Source: Escherichia coli
GTDB taxonomy: Bacteria; Pseudomonadota; Gammaproteobacteria; Enterobacterales; Enterobacteriaceae
Strand: one strand, 5' to 3'
Length of the DNA: 64,000 nucleotides
Assembly (NCBI RefSeq): GCF_041886205.1
Contig: NZ_CP169029.1
The translations under genes were made by a program, and so were the position numbers. Each line of letters starts with the position of its first letter. The first letter of the stretch is position 1. Below, piece by piece: positions 6,476 to 58,038 of the stretch. The notes beneath the pieces are model-generated. The model worked only from the letters and a program-made list of their open reading frames with translations. It made no database searches and had not been told where the DNA came from.

Positions 6476-7579
6476 ATGGACCGCATTATTCAATCACCGG
6501 GTAAATACATCCAGGGCGCTGATGTGATTAATCGTCTGGGCGAATACCTGAAGCCGCTGGCAGAACGCTGGTTAGTGGTGGGTGACAAATTTGTTTTAGG
6601 TTTTGCTCAATCCACTGTCGAGAAAAGCTTTAAAGATGCTGGACTGGTAGTAGAAATTGCGCCGTTTGGCGGTGAATGTTCGCAAAATGAGATCGACCGT
6701 CTGCGTGGCATCGCGGAGACTGCGCAGTGTGGCGCAATTCTCGGTATCGGTGGCGGAAAAACCCTCGATACTGCCAAAGCGCTGGCACATTTCATGGGTG
6801 TTCCGGTAGCGATCGCACCGACTATCGCCTCTACCGACGCACCGTGCAGCGCATTGTCTGTTATCTACACCGATGAGGGTGAGTTTGACCGCTATCTGCT
6901 GTTGCCAAATAACCCGAATATGGTCATTGTCGACACCAAAATCGTCGCGGGCGCACCTGCACGTCTGTTAGCAGCGGGTATCGGCGATGCGCTGGCGACC
7001 TGGTTTGAAGCGCGTGCATGCTCTCGTAGCGGTGCGACCACCATGGCGGGCGGCAAGTGCACCCAGGCGGCGCTGGCACTGGCTGAACTGTGCTACAACA
7101 CCCTGCTGGAAGAAGGCGAAAAAGCGATGCTTGCCGCCGAACAGCATGTAGTGACTCCGGCGCTGGAGCGCGTGATTGAAGCGAACACCTATTTAAGCGG
7201 TGTAGGCTTTGAAAGTGGTGGTCTGGCTGCGGCGCACGCAGTGCATAACGGCCTGACCGCTATCCCGGACGCGCATCACTATTATCACGGTGAAAAAGTG
7301 GCATTTGGTACACTGACGCAGCTGGTTCTGGAAAACGCACCGGTTGAGGAAATCGAAACCGTAGCTGCACTTAGCCATGCGGTAGGTTTGCCAATAACTC
7401 TCGCTCAACTGGATATTAAAGAAGATGTCCCGGCGAAAATGCGAATTGTGGCAGAAGCGGCATGTGCAGAAGGTGAAACCATCCACAACATGCCTGGCGG
7501 CGCGACGCCAGATCAGGTTTACGCCGCTCTGCTGGTAGCCGACCAGTACGGTCAGCGTTTCCTGCAAGAGTGGGAATAA
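6476..7579 (+). CDS. gldA: Glycerol dehydrogenase
   Basis: ORF-track entry 6437..7579 trimmed to internal ATG 6476 ([17 protein letters not shown]); iron-containing ADH family; 367 aa. Confidence 0.9.
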
Positions 7580-7587
7580 GCTATGTC

Positions 7588-7612
7588 AAACTCCCGGCCT
7601 GTCCGGGAGTTT
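7588..7612 (+). terminator. Hairpin immediately after the gldA stop
   Basis: Perfect 10-bp inverted repeat aaactcccgg / ccgggagttt with 5-nt loop, 9 nt after the stop codon. Confidence 0.5.
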
Positions 7613-7624
7613 GAACGCAAAATA

Positions 7625-7722
7625 GCCTGATGCGCTACGCTTATCAGGCCTACGCAATCTCTGCAATATATTGAATTTGCGTACCTTTGTAGGCCGGATA
7701 AGGCGTTCACGCCGCATCCGGC
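7625..7722. repeat. RIP/BIME-type element: two inverted REP sequences flanking an AT-rich IHF-site-like spacer
   Basis: gcctgatgcgctacgcttatcaggcctac ... aatatattgaatttgc ... gtaggccggataaggcgttcacgccgcatccggc; same architecture recurs at 23051-23148 and 43868-43966. Confidence 0.8.
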
Positions 7723-7853
7723 ACTCTGTGCCAGTAATCTGAAACTCCCACGTTGTTCAGGAGTTTTTTATCCGCTTCTGGACATTTTCTCCACAGAACA
7801 ATAGTTAGTCCGGAAGGTCGAATCTGTGACTCTTATTTTCACGGACGAACCAG

Positions 7854-8471
7854 ATGAAAGCTTCACTGGCGCTGCTCAGCCTGCTAACGGCATTTACCAG
7901 CCACTCCTTAAAATCTCTTGCCGTTCCACCAACCGTGGTACAAATCCAGGCCAATACCAACCTTGCCATCGCAGACGGTGCCAGACTGCAAATTGGCAGC
8001 ACGCTATTTTACGATCCGGCGTATGTGCAGCTTACCTATCCTGGCGGTGATGTCCCGCAAGAACGCGGTGTTTGTTCTGATGTGGTGATCCGCGCATTGC
8101 GCAGCCAGAAGGTCGATTTGCAGAAACTGGTTCACGAAGATATGGCGAAGAATTTTGACGATTATCCGCAAAAGTGGAAGTTAAAGCGCCCGGACAGCAA
8201 CATCGATCACCGTCGGGTACCTAATCTGGAAACCTGGTTTACCCGCCACGATAAAACACGCCCCACCAGCAAGAACCCCAGTGACTATCAAGCGGGCGAT
8301 ATTGTCTCCTGGCGATTAGATAACGGGCTGGCACATATTGGGGTGGTTTCAGATGGCTTCGCCCGCGACGGTACGCCGCTGGTGATACATAACATTGGCG
8401 CAGGTGCGCAGGAAGAAGATGTGCTGTTTAGCTGGCGGATGGTGGGGCATTATCGTTATTTTGTTAAATAA
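7854..8471 (+). CDS. yijF: DUF1287-family secreted protein YijF
   Basis: 205-aa ORF with N-terminal signal peptide MKASLALLSLLTAFTSHS; synteny. Confidence 0.8.
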   Translation: MKASLALLSLLTAFTSHSLKSLAVPPTVVQIQANTNLAIADGARLQIGSTLFYDPAYVQLTYPGGDVPQERGVCSDVVIRALRSQKVDLQKLVHEDMAKNFDDYPQKWKLKRPDSNIDHRRVPNLETWFTRHDKTRPTSKNPSDYQAGDIVSWRLDNGLAHIGVVSDGFARDGTPLVIHNIGAGAQEEDVLFSWRMVGHYRYFVK

Positions 8472-13389: not shown

Positions 13390-14889
13390 ATGGGTCTGAT
13401 ATCGAGTGTCGTAAAATCACTTTCTAAACTGTCGATGATTGGTCGCGCGCTGATGCTGCCAATTTCGCTTCTGCCTGCCGCCGGGTTGTTACTGGCGTTC
13501 GGCGATAAATTCCACATGCCGTTGATGATGAATGCCGGCGGTATCATTTTTGATAACTTGCCGATGCTTTTTGCTATCGGTTCTGCCGTGGGACTGGCTT
13601 CAGAATCGGGTATTGCGGCGCTATCCGCAGCTGTATCCGTCTTTGTCACTAATATCACCATCGGTACTGTCCTTGGCATCACACCAGAGATGGCCGGGCA
13701 AGGCGGTAAATATGCGATGGTGGTGGGGATCCCAACGCTGCAAATGGGCGTCTTCGGCGGCCTGATATGCGGGGTTCTGGCGGCGTGGTGTTACAACCGT
13801 TTTCATACCATGCAATTACCAGAATTCCTTGGCTTTTTCTCCGGCAAACGCTTCGTGGCTATCGCGACGGCTTTTCTTTCCTTCATCCTTGGCTTGTTAC
13901 TGCCCTATGTCTGGCAACATATTCAGTCGGGAATCGATGCCCTATCAGTTATCGTCAATGGTGATAACCAGGCGGCATCGACCTTTATTTTTGGTGTGAC
14001 AGAACGTGCGCTCATTCCGCTTGGCCTGCACCACATCTGGTATCCATCGTTCTGGTACTCTTTTGGTGATTACACCACCCAGGCAGGCCAAATGATCCAC
14101 GGTGACCAAACAATTTGGTTCAAAATGCTGGAAGAAGGTGTGAAATCGTTCAGTAGCGACAGCTACCATAACGCGGGTAAGTTTTTACAGGGCGAGTTTC
14201 CGCTCATGCTGTTCGCGCTGCCTGCGGCGTGTCTGGCGATGTACCATGAAGCACACACCAAAAATAAGAAAATTGCCGCCGGTATTCTGTTCTCTGCCGC
14301 ATTAACCTGTTTCCTGACAGGTATTACAGAACCCGTTGAATTTACCTTTATTTTCGTGGCACCGGTACTGTACGTATTTAACGCGATAATGGCTGGCCTC
14401 TCCTATATGGCGATGTATCTGCTCCATGCCCACATTGCAAAATCCTTCTCGGCAGGGCTTATCGATTATATTTCGTTTGGCATCCTGCCATCATTTAACG
14501 GCTACGAAACCAACTTCCTGAGTGCCATTATTGTTGGCGTACCGATGGCGATTATCTATTACTTCACTTTCCGCTTTGTTATTCGCCGTTTTGATGTGAA
14601 AACACCGGGTCGAGCCGAAAGCACTGTATCCGCTAACGATAAAACCGATGATGAACTGGCTACGGAAATTATCAGTCTGCTGGGCGGCCAACAAAATATC
14701 TCTTCCGTCGCATCCTGCATAACGCGCCTGCGTCTGGAAGTGGCGGATAAAGATGTGGTTGATAAAGATGGACTGAACAATGTCGGTGCTCGTGGTGTGG
14801 TTTTCGTCGGCGAGAACGGCATTCAGGTGATTTTTGGCGCACGTGCACAATTTATCGCGCAAACCATGTCGACGATGATTGGCAAATAG
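13390..14889 (+). CDS. PTS glucose-family EIICB permease (substrate unknown)
   Basis: ORF-track entry 13354..14889; start placed at ATG 13390 (GGGGG 8 nt upstream). Multi-TM EIIC domain followed by an EIIB domain with the phospho-Cys motif SVASCITRLRLEV. Confidence 0.8.
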   Translation: MGLISSVVKSLSKLSMIGRALMLPISLLPAAGLLLAFGDKFHMPLMMNAGGIIFDNLPMLFAIGSAVGLASESGIAALSAAVSVFVTNITIGTVLGITPEMAGQGGKYAMVVGIPTLQMGVFGGLICGVLAAWCYNRFHTMQLPEFLGFFSGKRFVAIATAFLSFILGLLLPYVWQHIQSGIDALSVIVNGDNQAASTFIFGVTERALIPLGLHHIWYPSFWYSFGDYTTQAGQMIHGDQTIWFKMLEEGVKSFSSDSYHNAGKFLQGEFPLMLFALPAACLAMYHEAHTKNKKIAAGILFSAALTCFLTGITEPVEFTFIFVAPVLYVFNAIMAGLSYMAMYLLHAHIAKSFSAGLIDYISFGILPSFNGYETNFLSAIIVGVPMAIIYYFTFRFVIRRFDVKTPGRAESTVSANDKTDDELATEIISLLGGQQNISSVASCITRLRLEVADKDVVDKDGLNNVGARGVVFVGENGIQVIFGARAQFIAQTMSTMIGK

Positions 14890-14962
14890 TCATAAGATTA
14901 CGCTTTGTTGGAGGTTCTGGTCCCTGACTGGAACCTTCGTGCTTATTGTTCAGGGAGTGAAT

Positions 14963-15979
14963 TTGAAGAAAGTCAGCATAATTGATGTTGCCAAAAGCGC
15001 AGGAGTCTCAGTCTCTACTGTGTCGCTGGTCCTGCGCCAGAAAGGCAAAATTTCCGAGGCAACCATCGAGAAAGTTCATGCTGCCATTACTGAGCTTGGC
15101 TACGTGCATAATGTTGCCGCCGCCAATTTACGCTCCAACACTTCAAATCTTATCGGTCTGATTTTACGTGATTTTAGCGATAGCTTTTCCATCAAAGTGA
15201 TGGCAAGTATTGTTCAGGAACTGGAAGCACAAGGATATATGGTGTTCCTCGGGCAACCACAAAACGAGCATGAACATCTTGAACGCTGTTTGCTTTCCTT
15301 CAAGCAACAAGGTGTTGCCGGAGTGATTTATCTGGCTTCCGATGCGCAGCGTGAAACCTTACCTGGGCTGATTCGCCAGTGCCCTCTTCCTCTTGTCGTC
15401 ACCTCACAATCCCCCATCAAAGATGAATGCAATCTGGTATTGCGCGACAACCAGCAGGCGGCAAGCCTTGCCGCGCGTTATTTAATTGAGCGTGGACATC
15501 GTTACATTGCCTACCTCGGCGGCAGAGAAAGCGATCTTATCCGCCAACAGCGACTGGTGGGTTTTCGCCAGACCCTGGCAAAATTCGGTATTGCCAGTCG
15601 TGACGAGTTCACGCCAGCCTGTGACGATGATACATACGCCGCCAGCATGGCCACGCGCCAGTTGTTGGAGAATAACAATGCTATCACCGCCCTACTCTGC
15701 CATTCGCCCGAGGCCATGATTGGCAGCATCAACGGCATACATCAGGTGGGGCGCACCGTCGGGAGAGACATCTTTCTGACCCAGCAGGTGGCGCTAATTG
15801 GTTTTGAGGATATGCTGCACATCAACCTGACCTCTCCCGTTTTCACCTATGTCTCTTCCGCCAGTGAAGAAACCGGACGCCAGGCCGCTAATCTGATAAT
15901 CCGCAAATTAAAAGACCCGGAGCTGCAAATTCAAAGAATTGCGCTTTCGGGGCAACTGGTAGTGCGGGAATCGGCGTAA
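14963..15979 (+). CDS. LacI/GalR-family transcriptional regulator
   Basis: ORF-track entry 14879..15979; N-terminal HTH KKVSIIDVAKSAGVSVSTVSLVL followed by a periplasmic-binding-protein-like effector domain; start tentatively TTG 14963 (AGGGAG 5 nt upstream), start codon uncertain. Confidence 0.75.
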   Translation: MKKVSIIDVAKSAGVSVSTVSLVLRQKGKISEATIEKVHAAITELGYVHNVAAANLRSNTSNLIGLILRDFSDSFSIKVMASIVQELEAQGYMVFLGQPQNEHEHLERCLLSFKQQGVAGVIYLASDAQRETLPGLIRQCPLPLVVTSQSPIKDECNLVLRDNQQAASLAARYLIERGHRYIAYLGGRESDLIRQQRLVGFRQTLAKFGIASRDEFTPACDDDTYAASMATRQLLENNNAITALLCHSPEAMIGSINGIHQVGRTVGRDIFLTQQVALIGFEDMLHINLTSPVFTYVSSASEETGRQAANLIIRKLKDPELQIQRIALSGQLVVRESA

Positions 15980-16052
15980 TACAAATGCCGAATGAGATGT
16001 ACGTCGATATCGTCATCCGGCAATAAGGTGTAAACCAACTTAATGCGTATGA

Positions 16053-17606
16053 TTACTTGATATCCTTCACGCGCATACCGTTGAGCTGTTCATCCGTGAT
16101 GGTGTTACCCGCTTTGAAGTAATCAACCACGGCGTGATAAACATAATAACCGCCGGTTGTGTTGCGCGCCTGACCCTCGGTAAATGCGGTAAAACCATCT
16201 CCACCATCAGCAAGGAAACTCTGGGTGGCAATAGAATAAACTGTCGCATCTTCAATGGGTTTGCCATTCAGAGTCAGTGTGATTACCCGCTGACCAACCA
16301 GTTTGCTGCTGTCGTACTTCATTTCCAGGCCTTTCGATACCTGTAAAACGCCATTACTTAAACTTGCGCCGTGTTCCATCAAACTGCGTAATTGTTTACC
16401 CGTGAGTTCCATCGTCACCAGTTCGTTGGGGAACGGGAAGGTACTGATGACGCCGCCCATCGTAATCGCCCCTGCGGGGATCTCATTGCGAATACCACCA
16501 GAGTTGGTTAACGCCAATTGGGTGTTTTTACCCGCCGCTACCAGTAAAGCGTCCGCCGCCAGGTTCCCGAGGGAAGCCGATTCACCATAGGCACGTTTTA
16601 ATTCAACCGGCGACTGCGCCACCGTTTGTTGCACCACTTCATCAAGCTTTTTATTCCAGCCGTCGATTACCTGTTTCGTTTGCGGATCGGGCTTCCACTC
16701 GTCGGCGTAAATGGTTTTAAGCTCGAAGTTTTTCACCGTAAAATCATGCGGCTTCTCTTTGTAGTCGAGAACCAGTTTGCCCACATCAATCCCGCCGCTG
16801 TCAGTGGAAAGGATGAGTGTATTGCCGACTTTAATCGGTTCCGGCGTACCCACATGTGCATGTCCGGTGATCAAAATATCCAGCCCTTTCACCTGACTTG
16901 CCGTCTGGATATCTTTATCCAACGCGCGACGCACATCCGTGCCTCCCATACTGGACTGGCGGGCCGGAACACCTTCGTGGATCAGGGCGACGGTTAGATC
17001 AACCTTGCCTTTGAGTTCATCGATATAACGTTGTAGCCATTTAATTTCATCGCGCGCTTCAATACCCACGCGCGTGGCAGCAGATACCGTATCGTTGAAG
17101 GCAAATACGCCGTGCAAACCTATAACGCCAATTTTCACGCCGTCTTTTTCGATGATGGTATATGGCTTATCCCAGAATGATTTACTGCTGTTCTGATAAA
17201 AAACATTGCCCTGCACAATAGGGAATTTTGCCTGACTCAACTGTAATAATGTGTTGTCCCAGCCGTGGTCAAATTCATGGTTGCCTATCGTGACGGCATC
17301 AAACGGCATAGTATTCATAATATCGATAATAGCCTTACCTTTGGTCAGGCTGCTGATATAGGGCCCGGTAAAATAATCACCCGCATCAAAAAACCATGTC
17401 GCTTTATTTTTTGCTTTTTCTTGCTTAACCAGCGTAGTGATATTTGCCCAGCCGCCAATATCCCGTTTACCGTCAGCGATCCACGGCACTTTATAAGGCT
17501 CGACATGCGCATGGAGGTCGTTGGTATAAATGATGGTGACATCTTTGGCGCAAGCCCAGAACGGCAATGTTAATGCGATACCCGCAGCAAGTATTTTAAT
17601 TTTCAT
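16053..17606 (-). CDS. Secreted bifunctional metallophosphoesterase / 5'-nucleotidase (UshA-like)
   Basis: 517-aa ORF with signal peptide [20 protein letters not shown]; calcineurin-like motifs DLHAH, GDYF, GNHEFD, GHAH, then a 5'-nucleotidase C-terminal-type domain. Confidence 0.75.
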
Positions 17607-17738
17607 AAATAGTCCCTTTCAGTGATTTAAAGGATTGCTACATTACGTTCTGAAAGAGTTATTTATGTGAGAGTAATCACATCCGCAGGGGATAGTTGCC
17701 GGACAAAATCAACGACCTTGTGAAATCGTTGGTGATAT

Positions 17739-18869
17739 ATGTCGACTCTGTTTACGATTAATGCCTGCAAGTCGTTTGGTTGCCGTAATTTAGGGCAACC
17801 AACATCGACAGATTACAGCTGGCCAGACTATCGACTGGGTTATCCGGCACTGCACTGTCGGGCATGTGGAAGTTACCCGCCTTTGTTTGACGAACAGCAA
17901 TTTCGTGACTGGCTGTCAGTTCACTTATCTACTTTTGCAACTGAGAAAGGTCATTTCTGCCCGGTATGTTATGGCACAAAGACGATTTGTTATGGCCACA
18001 ATCCACAGGGGTCGCAACGCATTCAATGTCGTAACTGCAAAAAAGTCTGGACACCTAAACAATATCAGAAAGAAATAACGCCTCCTGAAATAATCGAAAC
18101 GGTTGCTCTTCTGGTGCCATTTCAGGGAGCCAGCAATGGGCAGAAACTGTATGTTTTAATCAGTTTTGATGCTCTTCGCGGTAATATTCTTCATCTTTCT
18201 ACTAATTACACGCAGCATCAGGCTGGAGAAAGTCTGCATTATCGATACAGAGGAAATGCAGAACCAGAGTTACACGAGAGTAATATTGTACAACGCGTTG
18301 ATATGCGCGAAGCACAATTTCTACGCCGCAGTCAGTTTGATGAAATTCAGTATGGCAGCGCAGCGCTCAAACGCAATGCTAAAGGTGTTATTCTGCGTCC
18401 GGTTATCACTGCACACGGGCATTTCAGAGTACTGAATATTTTATTCCCTACAGTAAAAACACATGTAATTTCACACGAGTGTTTTTTAAGAGGTGCCATT
18501 ATTACGGCATGGGCTGATCTTTTTCGCCAACAGCAAGGTGAGATTTGGTTTATTGAAGAGGAAATAGCTGACTATACCGATAATATGCCCTGGAGTTTTC
18601 AGGGAACAACTTATCACGGCTGGTGGAAAAATCAGTGGCAACTTTGGGTTCAGGGCAAAAATCGTAAAATGGTATGTGCATTAACAGGCGGAAATAACAG
18701 CAAAGCTGAAATGCTCTCTTTCGCAACCAGCAGACATTTTATCGACTGGCTACATAAACAAGCAGTATTTACTCACAGCACCCCGCTTTCCGCAGGGCGC
18801 GTTACGCAAATACTGCTTTCTCTGGCTCAGGATTACAACAACTGCGCCAGCCGGTTGATATCCGACTGA
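17739..18869 (+). CDS. Hypothetical protein with N-terminal Cys-rich zinc-ribbon-like motifs; function unknown
   Basis: 376-aa ORF; four CxxC pairs in the first ~100 aa (HCRACGS, CPVCYG, CRNCKK); lower GC than neighbours; 3' end overlaps the metL 3' end by 37 bp on the opposite strand. Confidence 0.5.
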   Translation: MSTLFTINACKSFGCRNLGQPTSTDYSWPDYRLGYPALHCRACGSYPPLFDEQQFRDWLSVHLSTFATEKGHFCPVCYGTKTICYGHNPQGSQRIQCRNCKKVWTPKQYQKEITPPEIIETVALLVPFQGASNGQKLYVLISFDALRGNILHLSTNYTQHQAGESLHYRYRGNAEPELHESNIVQRVDMREAQFLRRSQFDEIQYGSAALKRNAKGVILRPVITAHGHFRVLNILFPTVKTHVISHECFLRGAIITAWADLFRQQQGEIWFIEEEIADYTDNMPWSFQGTTYHGWWKNQWQLWVQGKNRKMVCALTGGNNSKAEMLSFATSRHFIDWLHKQAVFTHSTPLSAGRVTQILLSLAQDYNNCASRLISD

Positions 18870-21265
18870 ATCGCCCCGGCGGTGACATCGCGCCCTGCGC
18901 CTGGTCCGCGGATCACCAGCGGGTTATCGCGATACCAGCGGCTTTCGATGGCAAAGACGTTATCGCACGGCAGCAGTGATGCCAGCGGATGGTCTTCACG
19001 CACCGCTTCCACGCCCACACGCGCTTTGCCATTGGCATCGAAACGCGCCACGTAGCGCAGCACCAGCCCCATTTCGCGGGCCGCTTCCAGCCGTTGCACC
19101 ATCTGCTCGTTCAGTTCATCGCCATTTTCAAAGAAATGGTCGATGCTGCCGCCTTCGCAATGGGCAGGCACCAGCGATTCAACGCGCACCTGATCCGGTT
19201 CGATGTCGTAACCCGCTTCACGCGCCAGAATCACCAGCTTGCGCATCACGTCTTTGCCGGAAAGGTCATCACGCGGGTCAGGTTCGGTTAAGCCCTGCTG
19301 CCACGCCTGATCCACCAGCTCGGTAAACGGCACGCTACCGTCGAATTGCAGGAACAGCCAGGAGAGCGTGCCAGAGAAGATCCCGCTGATCGACAAAATA
19401 GTATCGCCGCTATCGATCAGATCGCGCACGGTATGGTTGATCGGCAAGCCCGCACCGACGGTGGCATTGTACAGCCAGTGACGCCCGGTTTTTTCGAAGG
19501 CGTCGTGGATCTGGCGATATTTATTGCTGTCGCTGGCTCCTGCCAGTTTGTTGGCGCTAATGACGTGGAAACCGTGGCTGGCGAAATCGAGATACTGGTC
19601 AGCAAGCTGCTGGCTGGCGGTAACGTCCAGCACCACTAAATCATCATACGGATGGGCGCGCATCCACAGGAACAGCGACTCTTCATCCTGCTCGACCGCT
19701 TCATCGTTGAAGAAGGCTAACGCGCGGCTGGCGTCCAGCCCGTCATAACTCAACAGGCTACGGCGGCTGTCCACCACACCTGCCAGCACAAATTCAAAGC
19801 CGGTACGCGCCGAAAGCGTGCTCTGCTCACGGGCGAACAGTTCCAGCCAGCGGGAACCGATATTGCCCTTGCCGAACAATACCAGGCCGATGCGTTTTTC
19901 CGCGCGGAAGACGGACTGATGCAGCCCCTGAATCAGGCTTTCGGTCGGGCCGGTGCGCAGTACTGCCACCAGGCTGATGCCGTCATCGGACTGCCAGGTA
20001 AACTCGACCGGCTGGCCTTTCAGTTGCTGCCAGAAGCGGTGGCAATGCAGCGGGTTACGGGTGACACCCGCCCCGACCATCGCCACTAGCGCCAGCCCCT
20101 GACGCAGGCGCAGTTCGCCAGGTAATCCCGCTTCGTCGAGAATTTTCAGCGCACTGTCAGCGACTTCTGAGGTGTAGCAAAATTGCAGCAACTGGCGATC
20201 GTTATGCACGCCAACCGCCAGTGGGCGCACCTGAGCACGTTTCAGGATCTGGTCGATCTCTTTATGCGCCAGTTTGAAATCCTGGCTGGCGGGCACCTGA
20301 AACTCAATCAAGCAGACATCATCGTGGCTGGTGACAATACGCGCTCCAGTACCGGAGGCCAGCACGCGTTCAATGCGCGTGGAACCTTGATCCGGCGTGT
20401 AGCTACAGCGCAGCTGCAGGTCGATTTCGCTGCCAGAAACCGGCTGTAAAGTACGGGCGTGAAGAACGGGAGCCGCCAGACGCGCCAGTTCGCTGGCTTC
20501 ATCCAGACGCAGCAACGGTAGCAGGCAGGCATCTTTCACTTTACGCGGGTCGGCACTGTATACCCCGGCGACGTCGCTCCAGATGGTTACACGAGAAACA
20601 CCCGCCAGCGCACCGATTTGTGTCGCGGAATAGTCGGAACCGTTACGCCCCAGCAGCACCGTTTCACCGGCGTTGTTACGGCTGATAAACCCGGTCACCA
20701 CCAGACGTTTGCCCGGATGTTGCACCAGTAGCTGTTGCAGCAACGGGTAAGAAAGCCCTTCATCAACCTGCGGTTGCGCAGCGCGTTCAGCGCGTAAAAA
20801 CTCGCGGGCATCAAGCCAGGCCGCTGACAGCCCTTGTTGATTAAGCACCGCAGACATCAGGCGTGCCGACCATACTTCCCCGTGGCCCACCACTTCCGCA
20901 TACACCGCGTCGTTAATACCGCTGTCGAGCAGCGCCGCCAGGCGCTCAAGATCGCTGACAAAAGCGCTAATGAGGCTATCGGCTTCTTCAGCGGGTAACA
21001 GACCGCTAATCAGATCGCACTGATAGCGACGCAGCGTTTGTTGAACCTGATGCGCAGAGAGACGATCGGTCTGGCTTAGTTTCAACCAGTTAATCAACTG
21101 GTTAGTGGTGCTACCGGCGGCGGAAACCACCATCATATCGTCAGGCTGAGAGTACTCCGCCATAATGCCCGCGACACGCAAATAACACTTCACATCAGCC
21201 AGACTACTGCCACCAAATTTATGCAGTTGACGACCTTTCGCCCCTGCCTGCGCAATCACACTCAT
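18833..21265 (-). CDS. metL: Bifunctional aspartokinase II / homoserine dehydrogenase II
   Basis: 810-aa ORF MSVIAQAGAKGRQLHKFGGSSLADVKCYLRVAGIMAEY. Confidence 0.95.
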   Translation of the reverse strand: MSVIAQAGAKGRQLHKFGGSSLADVKCYLRVAGIMAEYSQPDDMMVVSAAGSTTNQLINWLKLSQTDRLSAHQVQQTLRRYQCDLISGLLPAEEADSLISAFVSDLERLAALLDSGINDAVYAEVVGHGEVWSARLMSAVLNQQGLSAAWLDAREFLRAERAAQPQVDEGLSYPLLQQLLVQHPGKRLVVTGFISRNNAGETVLLGRNGSDYSATQIGALAGVSRVTIWSDVAGVYSADPRKVKDACLLPLLRLDEASELARLAAPVLHARTLQPVSGSEIDLQLRCSYTPDQGSTRIERVLASGTGARIVTSHDDVCLIEFQVPASQDFKLAHKEIDQILKRAQVRPLAVGVHNDRQLLQFCYTSEVADSALKILDEAGLPGELRLRQGLALVAMVGAGVTRNPLHCHRFWQQLKGQPVEFTWQSDDGISLVAVLRTGPTESLIQGLHQSVFRAEKRIGLVLFGKGNIGSRWLELFAREQSTLSARTGFEFVLAGVVDSRRSLLSYDGLDASRALAFFNDEAVEQDEESLFLWMRAHPYDDLVVLDVTASQQLADQYLDFASHGFHVISANKLAGASDSNKYRQIHDAFEKTGRHWLYNATVGAGLPINHTVRDLIDSGDTILSISGIFSGTLSWLFLQFDGSVPFTELVDQAWQQGLTEPDPRDDLSGKDVMRKLVILAREAGYDIEPDQVRVESLVPAHCEGGSIDHFFENGDELNEQMVQRLEAAREMGLVLRYVARFDANGKARVGVEAVREDHPLASLLPCDNVFAIESRWYRDNPLVIRGPGAGRDVTAGAIQSDINRLAQLL

Positions 21266-23022: not shown

Positions 23023-23050
23023 AGCGGAAAAGAGCGGCGCGGAGTGGAAT

Positions 23051-23148
23051 CGCCTGATGCGCTACGCTTATCAGGCCTACGTCATATTGCAATTTATTGA
23101 ATTTGCACGAACTTGTAGGCCGGATAAGGCGTTCACGCCGCATCCGGC
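23051..23148. repeat. RIP/BIME-type element (inverted REP pair with IHF-site-like spacer)
   Basis: gcctgatgcgctacgcttatcaggcctac ... tgcaatttattgaatttgca ... gtaggccggataaggcgttcacgccgcatccggc. Confidence 0.8.
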
Positions 23149-23205
23149 ATAAACAACGAGCACGTTGTCTGCGACCCACCGCTTTTTATACATGGACGTT
23201 TAACT

Positions 23206-43702: not shown

Positions 43703-43867
43703 CGCCCGACTCTCTTATGTTGTGTTGTGATGAGCAAAGCGTGCCAGAAGGTTAACCAAACATTAAAGAATAAAAAAAGATTGGCTATAACTTGCGGGTA
43801 TATGTTGGGGGATTAAAAAGGCGGAAGAAATCCGCCTCATATTGCTGACAAAGTGCGCTTTGTCCAT

Positions 43868-43966
43868 GCCGGATGCGGCGCGAACGCCTTATCCGGCCTA
43901 CAAAAGTTTGCAAATTCAATAAATTGCAGAATTCATGTAGACCTGATAAGCGAAGCGCATCAGGCC
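43868..43966. repeat. RIP/BIME-type element (inverted REP pair with IHF-site-like spacer)
   Basis: gccggatgcggcgcgaacgccttatccggcctac ... tgcaaattcaataaattgca ... gtagacctgataagcgaagcgcatcaggcc. Confidence 0.8.
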
Positions 43967-44021
43967 TTTTTGCTTCTGTCATCGGTTTCAGGCTAAAGGA
44001 ATCTGCCTTTTTCCGAAATCA

Positions 44022-48945: not shown

Positions 48946-49029
48946 GTAGGCAGGATAAGGCGTTTACGCCGCATCCGGCATTTGAGCAGGATGCCTGATG
49001 CGACGCTGATAGCGTCTTATCAGGCCTAC
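48946..49029. repeat. REP pair (BIME)
   Basis: gtaggcaggataaggcgtttacgccgcatccggca ... gcctgatgcgacgctgatagcgtcttatcaggcctac. Confidence 0.8.
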
Positions 49030-57816: not shown

Positions 57817-58038
57817 TGCCGGATGCGGCGCGAGCGCCTTATCCGGCCTACAGGTCGGCAACAGTTGTAGGCCTGATAAGACGCGACAGCGTCGCATCAG
57901 GCATTGATTGCCGGATGCGGCACGAGTGCCTTATCCGGCCTACAGGTCGGCAATAGTTGTAGGCCTGATAAGACGCGACAGCGTCGCATCAGGCATTGAT
58001 TGCCGGATGCGGCACGAGCGCCTTATCCGGCCTACGGG
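57817..58038. repeat. Tandemly repeated BIME unit (~92 bp x ~2.4) between rhaA and rhaD
   Basis: Unit tgccggatgcggcgcgagcgccttatccggcctacaggtcggcaacagttgtaggcctgataagacgcgacagcgtcgcatcaggcattgat repeated at 57817-57908 and 57909-58000 with 3 substitutions; partial third copy to about 58038. Confidence 0.85.

Follow-up and report, generated by a model that had tools for sequence, protein, structure and literature searches.

Taken as a whole, our analysis leaves us almost certain that the three short composite repeats found in the gldA-yijF, metJ-yiiX and sbp-pfkA intergenic regions of the Escherichia coli DNA studied here are ordinary members of the BIME-1 family. They represent an already known kind of E. 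coli repeat, and there is nothing new in the elements themselves. BIME-1 was described between 1991 and 1993 and has been listed among E. coli repeats from the early 1990s onwards; the work of Gilson and colleagues in 1991 and of Bachellier and colleagues in 1994 is said to be the source. RIP (repetitive IHF-binding palindromic element, a term of Oppenheim and colleagues from 1993) we take to be another name for the same element. According to the definition given by Ton-Hoang et al. (2012), a BIME-1 combines one z1 and one y REP in inverse orientation, occurs singly, and has a long, well-conserved L linker with a frequent IHF site. The same definition is given by Nunvar et al. (2010), who credit the IHF binding to Boccard and Prentki (1993), and the title of the latter paper gives RIB as a further name for BIME-1.

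The DNA analysed, a stretch of 64 kb referred to here as the window, corresponds to the argH to rhaA region of the E. coli chromosome, reversed relative to K-12, as judged from the RefSeq annotation of strain wlxctx60 and of K-12 MG1655. A 701-nt piece around the gldA-yijF copy is 100% identical to strain wlxctx60, and the same piece was matched in 5,425 of 5,426 complete E. coli genomes. Between metF and metL, the window has ~5.5 kb of genes that K-12 lacks (window ~13390-18870; L002 26091-31570), encoding a PTS EIIC component, a MalI-like regulator, a bifunctional 5'-nucleotidase and a hypothetical protein. The feature table of NC_000913.3 (4095000-4140000) contains only CDS and ncRNA entries, and no repeat_region features for RIP or REP. 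On this K-12 MG1655 record, the corresponding linker sites are 4137831-4137849 (yijF-gldA), 4127994-4128012 (yiiX-metJ) and 4108608-4108626 (pfkA-sbp). A preliminary description of this DNA had named the gene pairs that flank the elements, correctly by RefSeq annotation, and had placed all three elements to within 1 nt of the coordinates determined here:

7625-7723, plus strand: BIME-1 copy 1, between gldA and yijF
23052-23149, plus strand: BIME-1 copy 2, between metJ and yiiX
43867-43965, minus strand (reverse orientation): BIME-1 copy 3, between sbp and pfkA

Each of them consists of a Z1-type REP, an L linker of 34-35 nt with the core TGCAAATTCAATAWATTGCA, and an inverted Y-type REP:

7625-7653, plus strand: copy 1 Z1-type REP, identical to GCCTGATGCGCTACGCTTATCAGGCCTAC, with the exact IS621 target ATCAGGCCTAC inside
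7654-7688, plus strand: copy 1 L linker, 35 nt, with the IHF-consensus match ATTCAATATATTG on the minus strand at 7664-7676
7689-7723, minus strand: copy 1 Y-type REP, inverted relative to Z1, with GTAG and CTAC towards the linker
23052-23080, plus strand: copy 2 Z1-type REP, with the exact IS621 target inside
23081-23114, plus strand: copy 2 L linker, 34 nt, with the IHF-consensus match ATTCAATAAATTG on the minus strand at 23090-23102
23115-23149, minus strand: copy 2 Y-type REP, inverted
43867-43901, plus strand: copy 3 Y-type REP, with 1 mismatch to copies 1 and 2
43902-43936, minus strand: copy 3 L linker, 35 nt, with the IHF-consensus match ATTCAATAAATTG on the plus strand at 43914-43926
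43937-43965, minus strand: copy 3 Z1-type REP, with 2 mismatches, one of which spoils the IS621 target (ATCAGGTCTAC)

The 29-nt Z1 REP GCCTGATGCGCTACGCTTATCAGGCCTAC occurs at three sites in the window when up to 2 mismatches are allowed (0, 0 and 2 in copies 1, 2 and 3, respectively), with none expected by chance. The inverted 35-nt Y REP, GTAGGCCGGATAAGGCGTTCACGCCGCATCCGGCA, is present in all three copies (0, 0 and 1 mismatches among copies 1, 2 and 3) as well as at three further sites in BIME-2-type clusters, again with 0 expected. At all three sites, the REPs stand head to head with CTAC/GTAG towards the linker (CTTATCAGGCCTAC on one strand and CTTATCCGGCCTAC on the other) and 34-35 nt between them, and each site comprises exactly two REPs in a single unit, with no tandem array. 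The inverted REPs that had been described as flanking each spacer are a Z1 and a Y REP throughout. Furthermore, the Z1 REP is identical to the Z1 REP printed in Durrant et al. (2024), and the Y REP differs by one base from the Y REP printed there. With these REP types, their orientation, the linker and the published REP match, every sequence-level feature of a BIME-1 is in place.

The copies are 87-95% identical to each other over ~98 bp. In an alignment of all three, the mean column identity is 87%, with almost invariant REP arms, and within the linker 21 central bases are kept, while 4-8 nt on either side of the core vary. The motif AATTTATTGAATTTGC, earlier put forward as the shared center of the elements, is found unchanged in copies 2 and 3, and copy 1 deviates from it at one base (AATATATTGAATTTGC). 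The preliminary description had considered the elements to be of the RIP type (REP, IHF-type spacer, inverted REP) and had named poor conservation of the central spacers as the result that would speak against this. The alignment shows the spacers to be conserved between the copies, the same holds for ~120 family members of other Escherichia and Pseudocitrobacter genomes, and the RIP-type identity is right. As single strands, all three copies fold far better than shuffled sequence (z -4.6 to -5.4); the minimum-energy DNA fold is one long hairpin for copy 2 and three separate hairpins for copies 1 and 3. There is no fourth copy in the 64-kb window, since weak matches to the motif at 15925 and 38083 lack adjoining REPs. 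Local enrichment was considered as well; by our own Poisson estimate, based on a median of at least 26 detectable L linkers per genome, three copies in 64 kb are a mild excess, which we do not regard as meaningful.

The repeat unit extends beyond the arrangement of REP, linker and REP. A 154-nt consensus of 60 family copies shows that conservation continues into outer flanks, for ~28 nt beyond the Y REP (CAGATTGCTGACAAAGTGCGCTTTGTTCA) and for ~25 nt beyond the Z1 REP (AATTTTGCGTTTGTCATCAGTCTCA). These outer flanks read as inverted repeats of each other and presumably represent the motifs named 'A' and 'B' when BIMEs were first described. Copy 3 has both outer flanks, copy 2 has the Y-side flank only, and copy 1 retains remnants of both, so that the units conserved in the family reach as far as the following approximate boundaries:

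7615-7741, plus strand: full variable slot of copy 1, consisting of the BIME-1 core and outer-flank remnants at 7615-7624 and 7724-7741
23046-23178, plus strand: presence/absence segment of copy 2, consisting of 6 nt, the BIME-1 and a 29-nt Y-side flank with a small hairpin
43838-43991, minus strand: full-length family unit of copy 3, with the Y-side flank at 43838-43866 and the Z1-side flank at 43966-43991, as delimited by the 60-copy consensus and the E. albertii orthologue

With respect to the neighboring genes, all three copies lie in a 3' UTR, at a distance of 46 nt from the stop codon of gldA (copy 1), 29 nt from that of metJ (copy 2) and 57 nt from that of pfkA (copy 3), and RNA folding places a terminator-like hairpin after each of them. 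At the metJ locus, the arms of the intrinsic terminator are located at ~23026-23045 and 23179-23189, with copy 2 in its loop. The hairpins at the other two loci are as follows:

7588-7614, plus strand: strong hairpin lacking a U tract, -20.4 kcal/mol, immediately behind the stop codon of gldA at 7579
7741-7771, plus strand: weak terminator-like hairpin with a U tract, GAAACUCC...GGAGUUUUUUAU, -7.5 kcal/mol, z -1.5, before the yijF start at 7854
43813-43838, minus strand: terminator-like hairpin with a U tract, GAGGCGGAUUUCUUCCGCCUUUUUAAU, -13.7 kcal/mol, z -3.3, downstream of copy 3 along pfkA transcription

A simple terminator scan reported no terminator beside any of the copies, only two chance-like matches inside yiiX, and the hairpin at 7741-7771, which has an 11-nt loop, was among those that it missed; the terminator hairpins are therefore predictions from RNA folding. 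The two hairpins at gldA-yijF (7588-7614 and 7741-7771) have related stems (AAACTCCC...GGGAGTTT and AAACTCC...GGAGTTTT), which bracket the slot occupied by copy 1. A rough survey covered 39 family copies whose neighboring ORFs could be called: 19 were located in convergent, 15 in tandem and 2 in divergent regions, and one of the 2 divergent calls is a miscall of the short metJ gene. The BIME-1 family, as far as this survey goes, avoids divergent intergenic regions, in agreement with the title of Boccard and Prentki (1993). The location of the copies between a stop codon and a terminator-like hairpin, together with this avoidance, supports the earlier suggestion that the elements help to delimit transcription units. 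A rule of orientation was examined too and rejected: although Z1 comes first along transcription in all three window copies, the copies in a tandem context split 8 to 7 (n=15), and the agreement within the window is a coincidence.

Presence of the elements in the E. coli population was determined using queries of ~180 nt that included 40-nt unique flanks. The element is in place with both flanks in 4591 (copy 1, 85%), 2713 (copy 2, 50%) and 5311 (copy 3, 98%) of 5425 E. coli genomes. At metJ-yiiX, about half of the E. coli genomes carry an empty allele with clean boundaries (e.g., O157:H7 FRIK944 and Ecol_732; L003 and L004 at 270-335). This empty allele, AAAAGAGCGGC GCGGAGTTAACCA GCCGCTTTTTT, is a textbook terminator (-21.6 kcal/mol) with the 7 nt TAACCAG in its loop, in place of which the window has 133 nt (23046-23178). 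At gldA-yijF, ~15% of genomes have a different GC-rich palindromic repeat of ~180 nt (CCCTCTCCCCAAAGGGGAGAGGG...), which exactly replaces 7615-7738/7741 (L006 190-540); no empty allele of this slot was seen among the genomes, which hold either the BIME-1 (~85%) or the other repeat (~15%). Orthologous copies were found in E. albertii, E. whittamii and Escherichia sp. E1V33 for gldA-yijF, in E. whittamii for metJ-yiiX (filled allele) and in E. albertii for pfkA-sbp. Since the copies have orthologues in other Escherichia species and are polymorphic within E. coli, the insertions are old, lost or replaced in some lineages, and not recently mobile. In the E. albertii gldA-yijF orthologue, the Y REP is decaying (GGCAAGAT...ATTTGGC compared to GGCCGGAT...ATCCGGC), with substitutions that comprise one compensatory pair, one G-U wobble and one broken pair, a pattern that hints at weak selection on the Y REP stem.

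The gldA-yijF slot resembles the metJ site in that it lies between two related hairpins and is filled by different repeats depending on the strain. It is tempting to speculate that BIME-1 elements insert preferentially into the single-stranded loops of terminator hairpins and that the filled and empty alleles lead to strain-specific 3'-end formation of metJ and read-through into yiiX; we consider this rather unlikely on the present evidence. If it were true, the preference for terminator loops would be a clue to the mechanism of TnpA-REP integration. The polymorphic occurrence of BIME-1 within or between terminator hairpins is a mildly interesting residue of our analysis, which might bear on integration.

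That the elements themselves serve as the transcription terminators of gldA, metJ and pfkA is improbable. They are indeed located at 3' ends and form stable GC-rich hairpins, and REPs have been reported in the literature to assist Rho-dependent termination and attenuation. However, neither REP hairpin is followed by a U tract, while a separate hairpin with a U tract lies downstream at each locus, and the canonical metJ terminator is present without the element in half of the strains and accommodates it within its loop in the others. Given the terminator of the empty allele and the placement of copy 2 in the loop, the element is dispensable for metJ termination and could even interfere with it.

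The conserved linker allows for two readings, as a binding site of IHF or as part of an RNA. The sequence ATTCAATAWATTG agrees with the IHF consensus WATCAANNNNTTR at 12 of 13 positions. A match to this consensus was not accepted as evidence by itself, as 65 matches were found in the window compared to 53 expected, which is no better than chance. More informative is the comparison of 24 distinct linker cores, drawn from loci that had been selected by the presence of one or more exact cores: TTCAATA and ATTGC show no variation, one position varies between A and T only and corresponds to the W of WATCAANNNNTTR, one position takes all four bases and corresponds to an N, and the rest of the variation is found at the outer bases. 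In the 5-bp stem TGCAA/TTGCA that these cores could form, there are 0 compensatory double changes and 10 broken pairs. This pattern of conservation points to a protein-binding (IHF) site and not to a structured RNA. IHF binding to the linker has been reported for the BIME-1 family, according to Ton-Hoang et al. (2012), Nunvar et al. (2010) and Boccard and Prentki (1993), and it is on the conservation within the family and this published biochemistry that the IHF-site reading is based. The text of the IHF paper by Prieto et al. (2012) does not mention REP or BIME, and none of the genes at these loci is named in the supplementary data of Kasho et al. (2021).

The RNA reading would take the linkers as genes of the Rfam sRNA ES036/CssrF, antisense to the flanking genes, with the REPs being incidental. 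Rfam ES036 (RF02751; gathering score 37.6 bits) has a match in each of the three linkers, always antisense to the adjacent genes and twice above its gathering score:

7646-7688, minus strand: ES036 match in copy 1, 36.9 bits, just under the gathering score
23073-23114, minus strand: ES036 match in copy 2, 39.6 bits
43903-43944, plus strand: ES036 match in copy 3, 43.6 bits

In addition, a northern blot of CssrF detected an RNA of ~290 nt from the Shigella dacB/yhbZ intergenic region. However, the 43-nt ES036 model corresponds to the L linker with its CTAC/GTAGGCC edge, so that any BIME-1 will match it, and a simple scan revealed no sigma-70-like promoter on either strand around any of the three copies. 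Moreover, the ES036 stem is the one with 10 broken pairs and no compensatory changes, while it is the loop, the site of the IHF consensus, that holds the conserved bases, and the ~290-nt band is far longer than the model and may correspond to a 3'-UTR fragment containing a BIME. An sRNA gene at these loci is thus very improbable, and a match to ES036 in an E. coli-like genome signals a repeat but need not signal an sRNA gene, as the sequence of the model indicates.

A distance of 15 kb separates copies 1 and 2, which are in direct orientation, and copy 3 follows after another 21 kb in inverted orientation. It is hardly credible that the copies are active substrates of homologous recombination that rearrange this 36-kb region: while their similarity over ~98 bp, in direct and inverted arrangement, and the rearranged flanks seen at two loci in single strains each (L005 and L007) would be in line with it, neither the deletion junction of copies 1 and 2 nor the inversion junction of copies 2 and 3 (one of the two possible junctions searched) occurs in any of 5,425 complete E. 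coli genomes, gene order at the sampled loci is kept out to E. albertii, and all three sampled genomes with broken flanks carry IS621 exactly at the CT of the Z1 CTAC, which is a site-specific and not a homologous event. Homologous recombination between the copies in natural isolates is thereby largely refuted.

IS621 is an IS110-family bridge-RNA recombinase element, and its insertion point in the Z1 REP is the CT of ...ATCAGGC-CT-AC. Strains bearing it were found at gldA-yijF (L008 at 1180-1210 and 2480-2500, and L007) and at metJ-yiiX (L005 at 1480-1510), at sites orthologous to 7640-7653 and 23067-23080 of the window. In L007 and L005, the far flank beside IS621 is rearranged. In strains OkiPb01677 and ST130, the opposite flank consists of sodA/rhaT or a hypothetical gene and no longer of gldA or metJ, which suggests that these flanks are IS621-associated rearrangements. 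The sequence ATCAGGCCTAC is the natural target of IS621 (Durrant et al. 2024); copies 1 and 2 contain it unaltered, and copy 3 deviates from it at one position. The exact target was also observed in Z2 REPs of the window, at 49016-49029, 57867-57880 and 57959-57972. Of the earlier proposal that the elements are recombination substrates, the homologous part is thus not borne out, as no chimeric junction was found in 5,425 genomes, whereas they do hold as site-specific targets of IS621.

The functional properties of the three copies are inherited from the BIME-1 family, from which they are inferred for these loci. At the DNA level, IHF would bind and bend the linker, as described for the family, and the REP arms may be bound weakly by gyrase and Pol I and may be extruded in the form of hairpins or of a cruciform. 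At the mRNA level, the two REP stem-loops would block 3'-to-5' exonucleases and partly attenuate transcription, so that the upstream gldA, metJ and pfkA messages may be stabilized and read-through limited. High gyrase affinity and in vivo cleavage are properties of BIME-2, with a lower affinity for BIME-1 (Nunvar et al. 2010, among others). The previous designation of the elements as candidate gyrase sites is qualified by this lower affinity. It is worth noting that effects of REPs on expression are context dependent and not uniform, as stated in a 2026 preprint. The elements, being non-autonomous units, probably owe their spread to the REP-associated Y1 transposase (TnpA-REP/RAYT), and the three window copies would now be essentially immobile residents.

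Beyond the window, a scan of one genome per bacterial species revealed the exact core GCAAATTCAATAWATTGCA at 114 loci. In Escherichia and in three Pseudocitrobacter species, it is almost always located between a Y and a Z1 REP; within Escherichia, a REP context was found in E. coli-like species, E. albertii, E. whittamii, sp. E1V33 and sp. MOD1-EC7003. Approximately 18 singleton matches in unrelated taxa are devoid of REPs and look like chance matches. Complete E. coli-type units were also identified on five tiny or low-coverage contigs of Bacteroides, Collinsella, Desulfosporosinus, Alkalicoccobacillus and Methylobacterium assemblies, which most likely represent Escherichia contamination or mis-binning. 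Apart from these, no core in a REP context was found outside Escherichia and Pseudocitrobacter among exact 19-mer matches, a search from which absence in Salmonella does not follow. When pairs of Y and Z1 were sought without requiring the core, the linker measured 34-35 nt in 191 of 198 detections (every element being counted on both strands), all of the L type. The Pseudocitrobacter genomes contain many BIME-1 units close to the E. coli consensus, with the same Y, Z1, L and outer flanks. In Escherichia sp. MOD1-EC7003, tandem arrays of 5-7 Y-L-Z1 units were observed (L112 2690-3460; L117 40-760; L118 250-1000; L114), in which the unit recurs every 107-115 nt, or every 162 nt in the case of L114. 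These are either amplified BIME-1-like arrays or L-linker 'atypical BIMEs', BIME-1 having been described as single-copy in K-12.

As conserved, ordinary examples of BIME-1, the three elements carry little weight as a discovery. For annotation, they mark three 3' UTRs, explain two Rfam ES036 sRNA matches as repeat-derived, and flag exact targets of the IS621 bridge recombinase in copies 1 and 2. Furthermore, two of the three sites are polymorphic between strains, which can confuse alignments and may add to strain-level differences in 3'-UTR regulation.

Compared to known systems, the three elements share with ES036 (CssrF) the sequence match to the L linker; however, ES036 is annotated as an sRNA gene, and at the window copies there is neither a promoter-like signal nor covariation. 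REPINs, which are REP doublets that form hairpins and are mobilized by RAYTs in Pseudomonas and others, resemble the window copies in having two inverted REPs with a spacer, a long-hairpin fold (the minimum for copy 2 only) and a polymorphism with discrete ends, and the analogy between BIME-1 and REPINs has been drawn by Nunvar et al. (2010). Unlike in REPINs, the arms of the window copies are of two REP types (Y and Z1), and their spacer is a conserved, putative protein-binding site. BIME-2 elements are composed of Y and Z2 REPs with a short linker and form tandem arrays with strong gyrase sites (REP325/naRNA4 type). Like the window copies, they contain the Y REP and lie extragenically in 3' UTRs, but the window copies have Z1 (29 nt, without the Z2 insert), a linker of 34-35 nt and single units; with Z1 in place of Z2, a long linker and no tandem repetition, membership in BIME-2 is ruled out. 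The window does contain BIME-2-type clusters elsewhere, at 48946-49029 (a pair of Y and Z2) and 57817-58035 (an array of five REPs), with three Rfam naRNA4 (CssrE) matches of 73-79 bits; by coordinate transfer to K-12, these are putatively located between yiiM and cpxA and beside rhaA, respectively. With BIME-1, finally, the window copies agree in the head-to-head arrangement of Y and Z1, in the 34-35-bp L linker with an IHF consensus, in their single, extragenic occurrence at the 3' ends of transcription units and in the conserved outer flanks, and they depart from it only in minor respects, namely 3 point changes in the REPs of copy 3 and the truncated outer flanks of copies 1 and 2.
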